DNA of 64,000 nt. Origin: an uncultured Pelagibacteraceae bacterium (lineage in GTDB: Bacteria > Pseudomonadota > Alphaproteobacteria > Pelagibacterales > Pelagibacteraceae). The stretch lies in assembly GCA_902555435.1 (NCBI GenBank), contig CACDRL010000001.1:3758-67757 (forward strand). The letters run 5' to 3'. A model generated the notes under the pieces. The model was not told the origin of the DNA. It made no database searches and saw only the letters and a program-made list of their open reading frames with translations. A program made the translations under genes and the position numbers. Of the stretch, positions 1-60,547 are shown one piece after another (position 1 is the stretch's first letter; the number at the start of each line of letters is the position of its first letter).

Positions 1-273
1 AGTGTAAGCTTCTTGGTTTGGTAACCAAATATCAGGGTGAACATCAATCTCACCTTTTCCTCTGTCAATTGCAGCATAAATTGCAGTATTGTTTCCAGGA
101 ACTAGTTCTGCTTCACCACCCATTTTGTCTATAACTACTGCAGCAAGTAAATTTGCAATTGCAGTTGCACCTGTCCAACCTGGATCTCCAATTTTAACTT
201 TTTCTGCGTTTGCAGAGAAAATTGATAAAATAGAAATTAATCCAGCTACAAGTGTAGTTTTGATTATTTTCAT
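1..273 (-). CDS. Glycine betaine/proline-type ABC transporter substrate-binding protein (ProX/OpuAC family), 5' part only, runs off the left edge
   Basis: Not in the ORF track. Manual translation from ATG at 273 (GGAG SD upstream): MKIIKTTLVAGLISILSIFSANAEKVKIGDPGWTGATAIANLLAAVVIDKMGGEAELVPG...GEIDVHPDIWLPN, a signal peptide plus OpuAC-like N-terminus. Confidence 0.8.
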   Translation of the reverse strand, partial: MKIIKTTLVAGLISILSIFSANAEKVKIGDPGWTGATAIANLLAAVVIDKMGGEAELVPGNNTAIYAAIDRGKGEIDVHPDIWLPNQEAYT

Positions 274-351
274 TTACTCTCCTTATTATTTAAAAATAAA
301 GTCTAACGCGAATTGAGATAATGAGTCAAAGAAAATCAGATACTAAAATGA

Positions 352-1125
352 TTAAATATTTTTAATAAATTCTATAATATTTTTTGATACTTCACGTGGT
401 GCCTCAATAAGAAATGAATGCTTATATTTGGGTAAAATAACTAATTTTGAATTTTTTATCTCTTTTGCCATTTTTTTATTATGTTCAGGGCTACAACCGC
501 CATCATTTTCTCCTGTCATTAACAAACATGGTGTAGTTAATTTTTTTAGCCATGAAATCATTTCCGTATTTGCATAAATTTTAAAAACGTTAAGAAAAAC
601 CTCTGGGTCTGTATCAATAACTTGTTTTAATCTGTTATTTACTAAATCAGGATTTGTTTTTATAAAGTCATCAGTAAACCATCTAGAAGTAAGATTTTGA
701 AGTGTATGTTCAATTCCAGTGCTTTCCATCTCATTAATTATTTTTAACACCTTATTTTTATCTTCTTGAGATCGACCAGCAACTGTAGAAAGTAAACCAA
801 CTGATAATACTCTATTAGGAAAATTTATTGCATAAGCAGGTGCTATCATGCCCCCTAATGAGTGACCCATAAAATGAGCTTTTTCGATATTTGTTTTTTC
901 TCTTATTTTTTCTAGGTCTAAAACTAAATCCTCTAAAGTAAAATTTTTATTTGTAACAGGCGAATTCCCATGACCTCTTAGGTCATATGTAACAACTGTA
1001 AAATATTTTGATAGTTCGGATATCATGAAACGCCAAGCATTCTTGGCCGCTCCTATTCCATGAGTTAAAAATAAAGCAGGTCCTGATCCTTGGACAGAAA
1101 AATCACAATCAATTGCATTAGACAT
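352..1125 (-). CDS. Alpha/beta hydrolase (PcaD/TgnD-like)
   Basis: HGIG oxyanion motif, GHSLGG nucleophile elbow, TGEND acid, C-terminal His; 257 aa. Confidence 0.85.
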   Translation of the reverse strand: MSNAIDCDFSVQGSGPALFLTHGIGAAKNAWRFMISELSKYFTVVTYDLRGHGNSPVTNKNFTLEDLVLDLEKIREKTNIEKAHFMGHSLGGMIAPAYAINFPNRVLSVGLLSTVAGRSQEDKNKVLKIINEMESTGIEHTLQNLTSRWFTDDFIKTNPDLVNNRLKQVIDTDPEVFLNVFKIYANTEMISWLKKLTTPCLLMTGENDGGCSPEHNKKMAKEIKNSKLVILPKYKHSFLIEAPREVSKNIIEFIKNI

Positions 1126-1131
1126 TTGATA

Positions 1132-2166
1132 TTAAGCAACTTGATATTTTAAATTTTTAAAATATGGGATTATCTCTTCACTTATTTTATGCATTGACTC
1201 TATAATTTCATTTTGTTCCTGACCAAAACTTGAACTAATTATAAATTCATCTACTCCAGACTCTGCATAAATACTCAACTTATCAATTAATTCATTTATA
1301 GTGCATATAAGTAAATTTTCTTTCATTTCTTCAAAACTTTGTTTTCTAGGTAATGGCACAATATTTCCACTTTTAACTTTACCAGGGCCAGTAAACATAT
1401 TATCAAATCTTTTATAATATTCGTAAGCAAGTCTATTTTTTTTTTCTACATCATCCTGATCTTTTGCAACAAACATCATTCTTTGCATCGAAAGTTTTAA
1501 TAATTTCCCTTTTTCACCTAATTCTTCACATCCTTCTTTAAAAGCATTAACTCTCTCCATTAAAAGTTCTTTAGTGCCTGATAGAACAGTGGACTGCACA
1601 TGAAAACCTCTTGATGCTGCATTTTTTATGCTTTTAGGATCCATTGCAGCTATCATTATAGGGACAGGTTGAGTAATAGGTCTTGGCATAATTGTTAATG
1701 CATCAAAATTATAATATTTACCTTTATAAGAAACTTCTTCCTCAGCTAACAACTTTTGAAGCACTTCCAATGATTCAATAAATTTTTCTTTTGATTTTTC
1801 TATAGGTGTGCCTAATCTTTCCATTTCCCATGGGAAAGCACCTCTAGCTACTCCTAAGATTAGTCTTCCATCTGTCAAGATGTCGGCTGTTGAAACTTCT
1901 CCAGCATATGTTCTCATATCATGCAAAGGTAAAACTGCTACGCTTGTTGATACTGAAATATTTTTTGTTAAAGCAGCAATTTTGACAGCCATCTGCAATG
2001 GTGATGGCATCATAAGTAAATTTATTAAATGATGTTCGGGGATAGAAACAGTTTTATAACCAAGTTTTTCAGCTAATATTGATTGCTCAATCATATTTTG
2101 AAAATGTATTTTTGATCCAATATTTGGATCTGGCATATAACTTGTTAAGAAATGATTAAAATCCAT
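1132..2166 (-). CDS. LLM-class (luciferase-like) flavin-dependent monooxygenase
   Basis: PEHH motif, DILTDGRLILGVARG signature; 344 aa. Confidence 0.9.
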   Translation of the reverse strand: MDFNHFLTSYMPDPNIGSKIHFQNMIEQSILAEKLGYKTVSIPEHHLINLLMMPSPLQMAVKIAALTKNISVSTSVAVLPLHDMRTYAGEVSTADILTDGRLILGVARGAFPWEMERLGTPIEKSKEKFIESLEVLQKLLAEEEVSYKGKYYNFDALTIMPRPITQPVPIMIAAMDPKSIKNAASRGFHVQSTVLSGTKELLMERVNAFKEGCEELGEKGKLLKLSMQRMMFVAKDQDDVEKKNRLAYEYYKRFDNMFTGPGKVKSGNIVPLPRKQSFEEMKENLLICTINELIDKLSIYAESGVDEFIISSSFGQEQNEIIESMHKISEEIIPYFKNLKYQVA

Positions 2167-2249: not shown

Positions 2250-2660
2250 TTATTTTGGATTCGCTGTGAGTGTCTTTATCTCTAATATGTTTTCATTTGG
2301 ATCTTTTACAAAAAATGTTTCTTGCTCGTATTTTGTACCTTTAAATCTCAAATAAGGTTCGTCATAATATTTTGTACCACTATCTTTTAATCTTTGTTTA
2401 AGAGCATCAAAATCTTTTCTAGATAGATGTACGCCAAAATGTGGGACAGATACATTGCCCATGTCAACGTCATGTCTTTCGTTATCGAGTTTATGATCAC
2501 TTTTATGAAGAGTTAATTCATTTCCCCAAAAATCAACATCAGCCCATTCCTGTGCTGAGTTATCTAACCTGCATCCTAAGGTCTCACTATAAAACTTCTT
2601 GGCTATCTCTAAATCTCCACAAGGTATAGCTAAATGAAAACAATTTGTATTCTTATACAT
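2250..2660 (-). CDS. VOC/glyoxalase family protein
   Basis: [33 protein letters not shown] metal-binding pattern. Confidence 0.85.
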
Positions 2661-2742
2661 TTCAACCCTCTTTAAATTGCGTATTTTATTACTATATAAG
2701 GCATGTAATTTTTTTTATCAACCGCAACAAATTAAAAGAAAT

Positions 2743-3327
2743 ATGAGTGATTTTTTACAATCAATAATTGATAGAGACCCTGCTGCTAAATCAAAACTAA
2801 GTCTAATTTTAACTTATCCAGGTGTTAAAGCGGTATTCCTTCACAGAATAGCTAATTTTTTTAGTACAGCTAAATTTTATTTGATTGCAAGAATCATTTC
2901 ACAATTCTCAAGATTCTTAACAGGAATAGAAATTCATCCAAATGCAAAAATTGGAAAAAATTTATTTATTGATCACGGTATGGGAGTAGTAATTGGAGAA
3001 ACATCTGAAATTGGTGATAACGTAACTATTTATCATATGGTTACATTGGGTGGAATTGCTCCAAGTATAAATTCAAATGACCAGCGTAATATGAAAAGAC
3101 ATCCGACTATAAAAGAAGATGTGGTTATCGGATCTGGAGCGCAAGTTTTAGGGCCTGTTACTGTAGGTAGAGGCGCAAGAATTGGTGCAAATGCAGTTAT
3201 AACAAAAGATGTTCCTGAAAATTCTGTTATGGTTGGAATTCCAGCAAGAAGTGTTGGCATTGCTGATAGTGAATTTAAACCTTACGGAATAACACCTGAT
3301 AGTGATAAAAAACTAGATGATGAATAA
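2743..3327 (+). CDS. cysE: Serine O-acetyltransferase
   Basis: [34 protein letters not shown] hexapeptide region; start moved from 2677 to ATG 2743 where family similarity begins. Confidence 0.93.
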
Positions 3328-4321
3328 TACTCAAAACGACTTTATTTCAGGAATAGGAAATACTCCACTAATTAAATTAAGAGCTGCCTCTGAAATTACA
3401 GGATGTAATATTTATGGAAAAGCAGAATTTTTAAATCCTGGTGGATCAGTTAAGGATAGAGCTGCTCTTGCATTAATTAAAGATGCACAAGACAAAAAAC
3501 TAATTACTAAAGGTGGAACAGTTGTTGAAGGTACTGCTGGCAATACTGGAATTGGTTTAGGTCTATTGGGGAATTCTTTGGGTTATAAAACAATTATTGT
3601 AATGAATGACAATCAAACTCAGGAGAAAAAAGATTTACTTAGAAATCTTGGAGCTGAACTAAGACTAGTTCCACCTAAGCCTTATAAAGATGACAACAAT
3701 TTTGTTAAAGTTGCCGCAAGACTGGCGGATGAGTTAAGACCAACAAATAATAACGGTGTAATTTGGGCTAACCAGTTTGATAATACAGCAAATGCTAAAG
3801 GTCATTATGAAGGGACAGGACAAGAAATTTGGGAACAAACTGAAGGTAAAATAGATGGTTTTGTCTGCTCTTCTGGAACTGGAGGAACTATTTCTGGTGT
3901 AAGTAATGCTCTTAAAGAAAAGAACAAAGATATAAAAATTTATTTATCAGATCCAAAAGGATCAGCTCTCTATAACTATATCAAGAATGGTGAACTTAAG
4001 TCAGAAGGTGGTTCAATTACTGAAGGAATTGGATCAAGTAGAGTAACAGCTAACTTTGGTGAAGCTAAAATTGATGATGCCTACTCTATTGATGATCATG
4101 AAGCTCTACCTATTCTTTATGATCTTATTCAAAATGAAGGATTAAGTTTAGGAACTAGTTGTGGAATAAATATTGCAGGAGCTATTAGAATGGGAAAAGA
4201 ATTAGGACCTGGAAAAACCATCGTGACCATTCTTTGTGACAGAAGTGATAAATACGCAACTAAAATGTTCAATAAAAAATTCTTAGAGGAAAAAGGTTTA
4301 CCAATTCCTAAATGGTTTTAG
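3317..4321 (+). CDS. cysK: Cysteine synthase (PLP-dependent O-acetylserine sulfhydrylase)
   Basis: [21 protein letters not shown]-lysine motif, [13 protein letters not shown]; overlaps the end of cysE. Confidence 0.93.
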
Positions 4322-10468: not shown

Positions 10469-11045
10469 AAATATTTTCTATTTGAGCTTCTGCATCTCTG
10501 ATTGATTTTTCATAATCTAAGGCCATTTGATCAGCACTAATTACTTCAATTTTTTCTATTCCAAAAAAGTTTAAAATAAATTTTAACCAAGGCGTTAAAA
10601 AATCCTCAGAGCTATTTAGTTTAGTTCCACCTGAAGTAATGACTAGATATGCTTTTTTGTTTTTTAATAACCCTTCTCTTCTACCATTAGGTTTAAATTT
10701 AAAAGTTTCCCCTATTCTAGCAGCTAAATCTGACCAAGCTTTAAGTGTTGCTGGGGGACCATAATTATAAATTGGGGCTGAAATAATAATAATGTCACTT
10801 TCTTTTAATTCTTTTACAAACTTGTCAGAAAGTTCAAACATTTTTTTATGTTCTTCTGTTTGATCTTTTTCATCAATATTCATTCCAGACTCTGTTAAGC
10901 CACTTACAAAAAGCATCTCATCATCTAAATCTCTATAAATTACCTCATCTCCTGGTTTTTTGATTTTTTCTAAAAGTTTTTTTGCTAAAGCTCTAGAAGT
11001 AGAGCCTTTCTTTCTAGCGCTGGAGTCTATTTGATAAATTTTCAT
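10458..11045 (-). CDS. azoR: FMN-dependent NADH-azoreductase/quinone reductase
   Basis: IDSSAR..GS.SR, PIYNY..PA.LKAW.D, TSGG. Confidence 0.85.
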   Translation of the reverse strand: MKIYQIDSSARKKGSTSRALAKKLLEKIKKPGDEVIYRDLDDEMLFVSGLTESGMNIDEKDQTEEHKKMFELSDKFVKELKESDIIIISAPIYNYGPPATLKAWSDLAARIGETFKFKPNGRREGLLKNKKAYLVITSGGTKLNSSEDFLTPWLKFILNFFGIEKIEVISADQMALDYEKSIRDAEAQIENISID

Positions 11046-46409: not shown

Positions 46410-46947
46410 CTAAGAACTCTTGTCTTTTTGAGTCGCTCACAAAAGGTACTGCAAAATATCTTCGATAGGTAATGTTATATATGCCACACATGTGAAATAC
46501 CCCTCTTTTCAATCTTCTAATGGGTAAATTCAAAAAAAACGTAGTGATTGCAAGTCTTGGTGAACCATAAGTGCAAAAAATTACTGCTTTCTTTTTTCTT
46601 AAATTACCAATTGGATAACCATAGTTTCCAACAAGTTGTTTAAATCTAAATGCCCAAGGTGGTGCCAATACTTTATCAATCCATCCTTCAACTATTGCTG
46701 GCATTCTAAAATTCCATATTGGTGCAACTAATACAATTGTATCGCACTCCTCTATTCTCTTACGATGATCTAAAACTTCAGCGCTTGGCTCTTCTCCGGC
46801 AAATACAGGATCAAATTTTTCTTTATATAAGTCTACAACGTCTACTTTGTTACCTTTTAATTCGGAGTGTTTTATAAATTCATTTTTAATTGCTGCGTTA
46901 AACGAATTCTCATTATAATGACCGTAAACTAAGAAAATTTTTTTCAT
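46378..46947 (-). CDS. NAD(P)H-dependent flavodoxin-fold oxidoreductase (NQO-type)
   Basis: H....SFN.AI, DLY...FDP, PIW...PA...GWID.V. Confidence 0.88.
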   Translation of the reverse strand: MKKIFLVYGHYNENSFNAAIKNEFIKHSELKGNKVDVVDLYKEKFDPVFAGEEPSAEVLDHRKRIEECDTIVLVAPIWNFRMPAIVEGWIDKVLAPPWAFRFKQLVGNYGYPIGNLRKKKAVIFCTYGSPRLAITTFFLNLPIRRLKRGVFHMCGIYNITYRRYFAVPFVSDSKRQEFLDDVRKTANNI

Positions 46948-59536: not shown

Positions 59537-60547
59537 ATGAAAAAATTAAAAACAATTCTATTTTCCGCCCTTTTAGCATTTGGTATGACTTCTTTTGCAA
59601 ATGCTTGTGGAAAATTAGTTATCGCCGAACAAAACTGGGCATCTGCCGAGTTAATGGCAAACGTTGATAAAATCATTCTCGAAGAAGGATATGGATGTGA
59701 TGTGGAATTAGTACCCGGTGCTACTATGCCTACATTTACCTCAATGAATGATAAAGGAACTCCTGACATGAACCCTGAGCAATGGGCAAATGCAGTTTAC
59801 ACTCCTTTGAAAAAAGCGGTAAGTGAAAAAAGATTAATTATTGCAAATAAAGCTCCAATTACAGGTCTAGGAGAGGGTTGGTGGTTAAATCCAGCAGCTT
59901 TAGAAAAACATCCAGAACTTAAAGGAATGACAGCTGTTCAAATTTTAGAGCGTCCAGATTTATTTCCTGATAAAGAAGACCCGTCAAAAGGTGCTTTCAT
60001 GGGATGTCCAGCAGGTTGGGGATGTCAATTAGCTAATGCCAATTTATATAGAGCATTTGGAATGGAAAAAAAGGGTTGGAAACTTATTGATCCAGGTTCA
60101 GCTGCGGGTTTAGATGGTTCAATTGCTAAAGCATCAGACTCTGGCGAGCCATGGTTTGGATATTATTGGAATCCTACATCAATGGTTGGAAAATATAATT
60201 TACAGCCAGTAGATTTTGGTGTTCCTTTTGCAGGGAGAGATAATTGGGATAATTGTATTACTCTTGCAGAACAAGATTGTGCAGATCCAAAACCAACTGC
60301 ATGGACAAAATCTGAGGTTAACTCAATTGTAAGTGCTAACTTTGCTAAAACTGGTGGAAAAGATGTTTTAAAATATGTTGAAAGTAGAACTTTTCCAGGC
60401 CCAGTAATGAATGGAATGTTAGTTTATATGGCTGACAACCAAGCAAAAGGTTCTGATGCTGCGGTTGAGTTTTTAATTAAGCATGAAGATATTTGGACTA
60501 AGTGGGTATCTTCTAGTGCTGCAAAAAAAATCAAAAAAAGTTTATAA
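59537..60547 (+). CDS. proX: Glycine betaine/proline ABC transporter substrate-binding protein
   Basis: Signal peptide, NWASAE, GCPAGWGC, DPGS.A.LD, YYW.PT; start moved to ATG 59537 behind GGAG. Confidence 0.85.
   Translation: MKKLKTILFSALLAFGMTSFANACGKLVIAEQNWASAELMANVDKIILEEGYGCDVELVPGATMPTFTSMNDKGTPDMNPEQWANAVYTPLKKAVSEKRLIIANKAPITGLGEGWWLNPAALEKHPELKGMTAVQILERPDLFPDKEDPSKGAFMGCPAGWGCQLANANLYRAFGMEKKGWKLIDPGSAAGLDGSIAKASDSGEPWFGYYWNPTSMVGKYNLQPVDFGVPFAGRDNWDNCITLAEQDCADPKPTAWTKSEVNSIVSANFAKTGGKDVLKYVESRTFPGPVMNGMLVYMADNQAKGSDAAVEFLIKHEDIWTKWVSSSAAKKIKKSL

Follow-up and report, generated by a model that had tools for sequence, protein, structure and literature searches.

A luciferase-like monooxygenase–hydrolase cassette and a ProX-type importer in Pelagibacteraceae: probably neighbours rather than parts of one pathway

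Bacterial pathways in which a luciferase-like monooxygenase (LLM) opens a nitrogen heterocycle have been described in two forms that can be compared with the locus reported here. The trigonelline pathway with TgnAB, TgnC and TgnD is known from Acinetobacter baylyi ADP1 (Perchat et al., 2018, cited in PMC13236597 and PMC8269262), and in the Rut pyrimidine pathway the RutA LLM is followed by the alpha/beta hydrolase RutD, with the HpaC-type reductase RutF supplying the flavin. For the SAR11 group, homarine catabolism has been published as homABCD, a route that is not LLM-based, and we found no literature linking SAR11 to the use of trigonelline. On the transport side, the closest described systems are the DmpXWV and TmoXWV importers of roseobacters and SAR11 for dimethylsulfoniopropionate (DMSP) and trimethylamine N-oxide (TMAO), respectively. 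The present analysis concerns the first genes of a 64,000-nt stretch of DNA from an uncultured Pelagibacteraceae bacterium (GCA_902555435.1, contig CACDRL010000001.1; hereafter the window), where genes for an LLM and a hydrolase lie next to the gene of an OpuAC/ProX-type substrate-binding protein (SBP). The contig measures 283 kb, with the window at its start and 3757 bp more to the left of it, and the genome comprises 1.29 Mb with a G+C content of about 30%. Among the close relatives of its proteins, the name given is Candidatus Pelagibacter.

An earlier note on this DNA had described the three genes as a co-directional, streamlined unit for an N-methylpyridinium betaine, with a gap of 6 bp between the LLM and the hydrolase. 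All three genes are real and reside on the minus strand, and the 6-bp spacing is correct; a spacer of 78 bp then separates the hydrolase from the SBP gene. The features in question, including the gene of the vicinal oxygen chelate (VOC) superfamily that precedes them, are the following:

1–273, minus strand: OpuAC/ProX-type SBP (PF04069), first 91 codons, the gene being cut by the window edge
274–351, minus strand: spacer with the promoter-like leader of the SBP gene, TTGACT-N18-TAGACT (329..300), and an AAGGAG ribosome-binding site
352–1125, minus strand: alpha/beta-fold hydrolase of 257 aa (PF00561, 108 bits)
1132–2166, minus strand: LLM flavin-dependent monooxygenase of 344 aa (PF00296, 151.9 bits, residues 9–304)
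2250–2660, minus strand: VOC (glyoxalase/bleomycin-resistance/dioxygenase superfamily) protein of 136 aa (PF00903), upstream of the LLM

From our point of view, the locus probably comprises two separate things, namely a mobile accessory LLM-hydrolase cassette of catabolic function and the start of a separately promoted ProX-ProV-ProW importer, which are neighbours and not demonstrably one pathway; we regard this reading as somewhat better than an even bet. In compact SAR11 genomes, co-directional adjacency with short spacers says little about a shared pathway. Among 200 Pelagibacteraceae genomes, 77 of which belong to the same genus, the LLM is present in 3 and the SBP (at least 88% identity) in 42 of the same-genus genomes, and 39 of these 42 carry the transporter without the cassette. 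In two of the three LLM-positive genomes, LLM and SBP are located on different contigs. The cassette is accessory and rare: of the sampled Pelagibacter species, only a few percent have it.

The DNA that separates the VOC gene from proX forms a hypervariable slot in Pelagibacter. It holds the LLM and the hydrolase alone in the genome analysed here (flanked by positions 2167–2249 and 274–351 of the window), is empty in two genomes (G127 and G025) and contains only an aldehyde dehydrogenase (ALDH) gene in two others (G031 and G048). The remaining arrangements start with a gene for a 158-aa protein (f82), which is followed by about 2.7 kb of further sequence and then the ALDH in G084, by the ALDH, a tripartite ATP-independent periplasmic (TRAP; DctPQM) transporter and a peroxiredoxin in G093, and by the ALDH, the LLM, the hydrolase and an alternative oxidase (AOX) in G087. 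The VOC gene forms the conserved left border of this slot and is also found directly upstream of the SBP gene in cassette-free genomes (L102, L115); it is not specific to the LLM-hydrolase cassette. As a side observation, some Pelagibacter genomes have the hydrolase separated from proX by an AOX gene (PF01786; L107:8879–9544; L085:11966–12634).

Another group of SAR11 genomes, a sister group, carries the cassette at a second site, where a thioredoxin-like gene, the LLM, the hydrolase, a major facilitator superfamily (MFS) transporter and a LysE gene follow each other. This copy lies between a Liv-type ATP-binding cassette (ABC) transporter operon and the MFS and LysE genes, and runs convergently to a near-core cluster with a DUF1185 gene. 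In a gene tree of the LLM orthogroup, the LLMs that SAR11 carries at the two sites fall into a single clade. Since the cassette is inserted in a hypervariable slot, its adjacency to the SBP gene alone is no proof of a common pathway. In addition, about 75 bp before the SBP start codon are conserved in the alignment whether a VOC, ALDH, AOX or hydrolase gene precedes them, and the SBP gene appears to have its own conserved promoter-like leader with the putative promoter TTGACT-N18-TAGACT and a strong ribosome-binding site. Taken together, the distribution, the variable slot, the independent leader and the second location weaken the connection between cassette and SBP and do not support the proposal that LLM, hydrolase and SBP form one unit.

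Within the cassette, the situation is different from that between cassette and transporter, as LLM and hydrolase are one conserved unit across phyla. In a locus scan that covered one genome per prokaryotic species, used an alignment of four sequences as the query and mapped genes by tblastn, 79 related loci were returned, about 70 of which (Alpha- and Gammaproteobacteria, Actinomycetota) have LLM and hydrolase side by side. Both proteins are conserved in step: the closest annotated relative of the LLM, encoded on a plasmid of Roseovarius pelagicus, shows 50% identity, and the hydrolase adjoining it there is 47% identical to the SAR11 hydrolase. It is very probable that the two genes are co-transcribed. 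Among 1.8 billion representative proteins, only 86 matched the LLM below 1e-30.

A full operon is found in Pseudomonas nitroreducens, P. citronellolis, Shinella, Rhizobium, Gordonia and on the R. pelagicus plasmid. It encodes an HpaC/FerA-type flavin reductase, the LLM, a protein of the 4-oxalocrotonate tautomerase (4-OT) family, the hydrolase and an ALDH of the succinate-semialdehyde or another type, together with a Dpp-type SBP (SBP5), two permeases, an ATPase and a TetR regulator. Many marine metagenome-assembled genomes (MAGs) have only a LysR regulator, the LLM and the hydrolase. With their flavin reductase, tautomerase and (succinate-semialdehyde-type) ALDH, the full operons would fit an oxidative cleavage route to succinate semialdehyde; we found no literature on this operon. 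The LLM of Gordonia sp. IEGM753 (L035), which carries the whole Dpp-type operon, nests inside the Pseudomonas clade, and judged from this placement a transfer of the module between phyla appears clear. Since the LLM gene tree conflicts with taxonomy in this and other cases, the module can be considered mobile.

How close the LLM is to the trigonelline enzymes was assessed with a tree of 100 LLM sequences rooted on Escherichia coli SsuD, built from quick searches and with SH-aLRT (Shimodaira–Hasegawa-like approximate likelihood ratio test) values as the only support measure. The TgnB family was represented by the LLM of a tgn-type cluster on plasmid CP060162 of Acinetobacter venetianus, which also comprises AA_synth/DUF1185, alpha/beta hydrolase, flavin reductase, ALDH and NCS1 permease genes. 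Over its whole length, the SAR11 LLM is 31% identical to this protein, and the hydrolase of the window is 28% identical to the TgnD-like hydrolase, while members of the TgnB family are 60–83% identical to each other. In the tree, the SAR11 LLM clade, which includes two Roseovarius paralogues, and the TgnB family each receive 100% SH-aLRT support and form separate branches inside a common clade of 43 sequences, likewise at 100%. E. coli SsuD, the second LLM of the genome and the pNGR234a LLM all fall outside this clade; the protein thus does not cluster with alkanesulfonate-type LLMs, an outcome that the earlier note had named as part of a refutation of its proposal. The Sinorhizobium pNGR234a LLM, considered as a further trc/tgn candidate, was discarded, as it lies among nif genes and outside the relevant clade. 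The TgnB segments cited in the earlier note do align with the TgnB-family protein, but they represent the consensus of the whole LLM subclade and are therefore not specific to TgnB. By this phylogeny, the LLM is assigned to an uncharacterised orthogroup at sister level to the TgnB family and is not a TgnB orthologue.

The LLM matches the PF00296 TIM-barrel profile significantly over its full length, no NCBIfam model reaches its cut-off, and the closest solved structures are of the LuxA type (8cbb, the homodimeric Enhygromyxa luciferase, 5e-22). The top NCBIfam match, which is below its cut-off, would have indicated dependence on F420, a possibility that we rejected because LLM orthologues carry HpaC-type flavin reductases. 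For the hydrolase, the best NCBIfam matches are of the PcaD type, with 141.4 bits for TIGR02427 against a cut-off of 255.85, and the PcaD, RutD and MenH models all remain below their cut-offs. Its motifs GHSLGG at 87, GENDGG at 205 and KHSF at 235 align with the Roseovarius and TgnD-like proteins, and the enzyme is predicted to be a serine alpha/beta hydrolase with a Ser89-Asp208-His236 triad.

The cassette resembles the Tgn system in that an LLM oxygenase, presumably of the two-component type, is paired with an alpha/beta hydrolase and in that both LLMs belong to the same subclade, and its copiotroph orthologues are accompanied by a flavin reductase and a (succinate-semialdehyde-type) ALDH. 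It differs in that DUF1185/TgnF, TgnC and TgnE are missing, a 4-OT tautomerase taking their place in the full operons, that the SAR11 version has no reductase gene, and that the associated importers are of the Dpp, MFS or OpuAC type instead of NCS1. The similarity to the Rut pathway extends to the RutD and RutF models, which match the hydrolase and the Roseovarius reductase, respectively, below threshold; however, all scores are far below the cut-offs and the partners RutB, RutC and RutE are absent.

The other side of the locus, the importer, continues beyond the window edge. The proVW genes that the earlier note suggested looking for to the left are indeed there: the contig carries the rest of the 320-aa SBP gene, a ProV-like ATPase of 353 aa, a ProW-like permease of 503 aa and a LysE-type gene that enters the contig end (L001:443–4030). 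The full SBP matches PF04069 with 157 bits. It is one of four PF04069 proteins of the genome and distant from all solved structures, with 1.2e-12 to DmpX (7yle) and 1.8e-4 to TmoX (4xz6). A DmpX-like paralogue is encoded elsewhere in the window:

59537–60547: DmpX-like SBP (7yle, 1.5e-48)

The remaining two, at positions 99796–100740 and 149795–150811 of the contig (G000:C1), are a TmoX-like protein (4xz6, 3e-84) and a weaker DmpX relative (2.8e-30). The SBP at the window edge thus has the PF04069 fold, the ABC architecture and the aligned cage positions in common with the DmpXWV and TmoXWV systems, but its similarity is weak, the ligand-tail residues differ, and true DmpX-like and TmoX-like paralogues exist elsewhere in the genome. 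In the alignment to RnDmpX, Trp33, Trp83, Trp157, Tyr204 and Tyr206 correspond to Trp35, Trp84, Trp152, Tyr200 and Trp202, and the SBP has Asn62 and Gln111 in place of the carboxylate-binding Thr64 and Glu113. Residues of cage and tail site are (nearly) invariant in 110 orthologues, and the protein appears to keep the predicted aromatic cage typical of onium-binding ProX-type proteins.

A 91%-identical copy of the SBP lies directly after the ALDH in the single-contig genome G084, in which the order is cysK-cysE, VOC ... ALDH-SBP-ProV-ProW-LysE and the LLM-hydrolase cassette is missing. In Candidatus Pelagibacter ubique HTCC1062, SAR11_0796 is an ALDH and SAR11_0797 is proX. From the ALDH-proX order, we take G084 to be probably this strain, and if this holds, the SBP would be the orthologue of SAR11_0797 and the importer orthologous to SAR11_0797-0799 (proXVW). 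The systematic screen of SAR11 binding proteins assigned no high-affinity ligand to SAR11_0797, and the betaine/DMSP binder of SAR11 was found to be SAR11_1336 (Clifton et al., 2024, PMC11485210). The neighbour of the cassette would therefore be the one SAR11 ProX-type system that this screen left without a ligand.

Orthologues of the SBP occur at 63–65% identity in roseobacters and Hoeflea. All four genomes examined there have an operon of LysR, a CuyA-type pyridoxal phosphate (PLP) enzyme, SBP, ATPase, permease and alpha/beta hydrolase, and the PLP enzyme scores above the cut-off for D-cysteate sulfo-lyase. The hydrolase of this operon is 37% identical to the SAR11 hydrolase that follows LysE, so that the latter, and not the hydrolase of the window, can be regarded as the conserved enzyme partner of the importer. 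The present genome has no CuyA, and none was seen in the short flanks of five further Alphaproteobacteria with SBPs of 41–62% identity. The SAR11 cysK-like gene was ruled out as the counterpart of the roseobacter PLP enzyme, since the latter is of the CuyA type. A conserved importer module of the SAR11_0797 type can be delineated, consisting of the SBP, the ATPase, a permease of about 500 aa, LysE in SAR11 and the alpha/beta hydrolase (L001:443–4030; L061:11895–16849; L094, L095, L109, L110). Directly after the SBP gene, between proX and proV, there is a perfect 14-bp hairpin with a T-run (L001:3023–3053), which resembles an attenuating terminator and would raise the SBP mRNA over that of the membrane components; like the leader, it speaks for the transporter as an independent unit.

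Several points weigh against our interpretation of two independent neighbours. Shinella, Rhizobium and Mesorhizobium have LLM paralogues from this orthogroup whose genes come directly after a ProV-ProW-SBP set, and the SBP of this set (32% identity, E 8e-64) is closer to the SBP of the window than any solved structure and has kept the aromatic cage. The putative promoter of the SBP gene rests on a consensus match and sequence conservation, not on a mapped start. The reference for TgnB was a family member standing in for the A. baylyi protein, a choice based on the tgn-type gene set around it and on a 72%-identical relative named 'Flavin-dependent trigonelline monooxygenase, oxygenase component'. 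Finally, the genome has no HpaC-type reductase and the flavin supply of the cassette is conjecture.

It could hence be imagined that ProXVW imports onium-type metabolites, not necessarily pyridinium compounds, and that the slot collects strain-specific enzymes (ALDH, LLM-hydrolase or AOX) that process what is imported, for example by an LLM-catalysed oxidative C-N or C-S cleavage that releases an aldehyde. Monooxygenases of the LLM type for nitrilotriacetate, EDTA, dimethyl sulfide and alkanesulfonates cleave C-N or C-S bonds by alpha-hydroxylation, and such a link would agree with the situation in Rhizobiales, where this LLM orthogroup and this SBP subfamily are independently found side by side, as well as with an ALDH resembling betaine-aldehyde dehydrogenase (483 bits, below the cut-off) in the slot of many genomes. 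On the other hand, the slot also holds unrelated cargo such as the TRAP transporter and the peroxiredoxin, the cassette is also found with Dpp-type ABC or MFS transporters, and the conserved enzyme partner of the transporter is the different alpha/beta hydrolase after LysE. We consider this explanation unlikely, and any functional link between cassette and transporter, of whatever kind, still rather doubtful. The more specific notion that both jointly serve a still unrecognised onium-type algal metabolite appears equally unlikely. If it were true, however, the LLM-hydrolase pair and the roseobacter operon with CuyA and hydrolase around an SBP of 64% identity and identical pocket residues would together offer a chemical clue to de-orphan SAR11_0797, and a new strain-variable catabolic route would have been found in the most abundant bacteria of the ocean.

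The narrower proposal, in which a single streamlined unit of LLM, hydrolase and ProX-type importer takes up an N-methylpyridinium betaine (for instance trigonelline or homarine) and cleaves its ring, is less probable again, and we give it only a slim chance. Part of its basis has stood, namely the LLM subclade shared with TgnB and the full-length alignment at 31%, the hydrolase related to the TgnD-like protein at 28%, and an SBP cage that suits an onium or pyridinium head group; but the LLM lies in a clade separate from the TgnB family with its 60–83% internal identity, and the three genes have not turned out to be one unit, given a transporter that occurs mostly without the cassette, a cassette that occurs also without the transporter, the hypervariable slot and the SBP gene's own leader. 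The assignment of SAR11 homarine catabolism to homABCD also argues against it. Furthermore, the hydrolase is the only tgn-type partner beside the LLM in the window, and DUF1185, hydrolase and ALDH genes lie 160 kb away together with a different LLM. This second, co-directional cluster of the same genome, outside the window (G000:C1:160000–171000; L093), holds two EamA genes, a 2-oxoglutarate-Fe(II) oxygenase, a DAO-type FAD oxidoreductase, an LLM of 403 aa, a thiamine pyrophosphate enzyme, AA_synth/DUF1185, an alpha/beta hydrolase and an ALDH, as well as a third EamA gene. Its DUF1185 and ALDH proteins are 53% and 49% identical, respectively, to those of the tgn-type cluster, and as judged from these comparisons it is more tgn-like in composition than the cassette of the window. 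The DUF1185 gene is present in 57 of the 77 same-genus genomes, and co-occurrence of the cassette with the DUF1185 cluster was considered and dismissed, as the latter is this widespread.

The pair does adjoin a tgn-like set of ALDH, LLM, DUF1185 and hydrolase genes in two lineages of MAGs and in the second SAR11 arrangement, which speaks for the pyridinium proposal. In the two marine MAG lineages (L054:310–7093; L064:5021–11808), a LysR gene separates the LLM-hydrolase pair from the divergent ALDH-LLM-DUF1185-hydrolase set, the LLM of which is 34% identical to the TgnB-family protein, and this layout suggests two LLM systems under one regulator. Apart from this, the plasmid pLDW-10 of Arthrobacter crystallopoietes (L011) encodes a 28.5%-identical LLM together with a BCCT transporter, PucR, a CMD-family protein, a flavin reductase, an ALDH, EthD and an amidohydrolase, an uncharacterised route that may act on a betaine-type substrate.

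A type II Baeyer-Villiger pair, in which the LLM, like the two-component diketocamphane monooxygenases, inserts oxygen into a nitrogen-free cyclic ketone and the hydrolase acts as a lactonase, would be in line with the sub-threshold match of the hydrolase to PcaD-type enol-lactonases and with the 4-OT tautomerase and succinate-semialdehyde dehydrogenase of the copiotroph operons, which fit the processing of a ring-cleavage product, but it is the least probable of the explanations, as the tree places the LLM closest, among characterised proteins, to the TgnB family, which opens an N-heterocycle, the accompanying importers (Dpp and OpuAC type) point to polar or charged substrates, and no ketone-forming dehydrogenase is conserved beside the pair.

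For the cassette in our interpretation as an independent catabolic element, a likely chemistry can be outlined if Tgn, Rut and further LLM systems are taken as models and the genes that accompany the pair in copiotrophs are considered. The LLM would use free FMNH2 to oxygenate and open, or to oxidatively dealkylate, a small polar, probably nitrogen-containing compound, and the hydrolase would then cleave the lactone, enamide or ester formed in this way. This would set free an aldehyde (succinate semialdehyde or a similar compound) for oxidation by an ALDH encoded elsewhere, a step included because both the operons of the copiotrophs and the SAR11 variant with an ALDH point to it. Reduced flavin would be supplied by a reductase outside the cassette. 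The statement that the window contains no flavin reductase is correct for the HpaC/TgnA type, as there is no PF01613 match in the whole genome, but it overlooked two genes of the SsuE type:

10545–11045 (coordinates of the HMM match), minus strand: SsuE-type NAD(P)H-FMN reductase family gene (PF03358, 54.2 bits)
46615–46941 (coordinates of the HMM match), minus strand: second FMN_red family gene (PF03358, 39.2 bits)

These lie 8 and 44 kb from the LLM, whereas the copiotroph orthologues directly adjoin an HpaC/FerA-type reductase. The genome has no gene of the nitroreductase family either, and with both this and the HpaC-type family absent, reduced flavin would have to come from the SsuE-type pair or from another source. 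It is possible that the SsuE-type genes serve this role.

Since SAR11 genomes are minimal, strain-variable catabolic cassettes of this kind mark niche differences between near-identical populations. The cassette is abundant in ocean metagenomes, as judged from the best 120 database matches, which are all at least 91% identical, yet present in only a few percent of the sampled Pelagibacter species, and as the full operon occurs in cultivable Pseudomonas, Shinella and Rhizobium, its substrate should be experimentally accessible. For the importer, the CuyA-type gene and LysR that precede it in roseobacters and Hoeflea, together with a binding pocket that is invariant from SAR11 to roseobacters, provide a lead to the ligand of SAR11_0797, and these context clues, including the partner hydrolase, point to testable compounds and strains.

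Beyond the VOC gene, the locus is bordered by two divergent genes:

2677–3327, plus strand: cysE (NCBIfam EpsC/CysE, above cut-off)
3317–4321, plus strand: cysK-like PLP enzyme (NCBIfam PRK10717, above cut-off)

This cysE/cysK-like flank is kept in all Pelagibacter loci examined.

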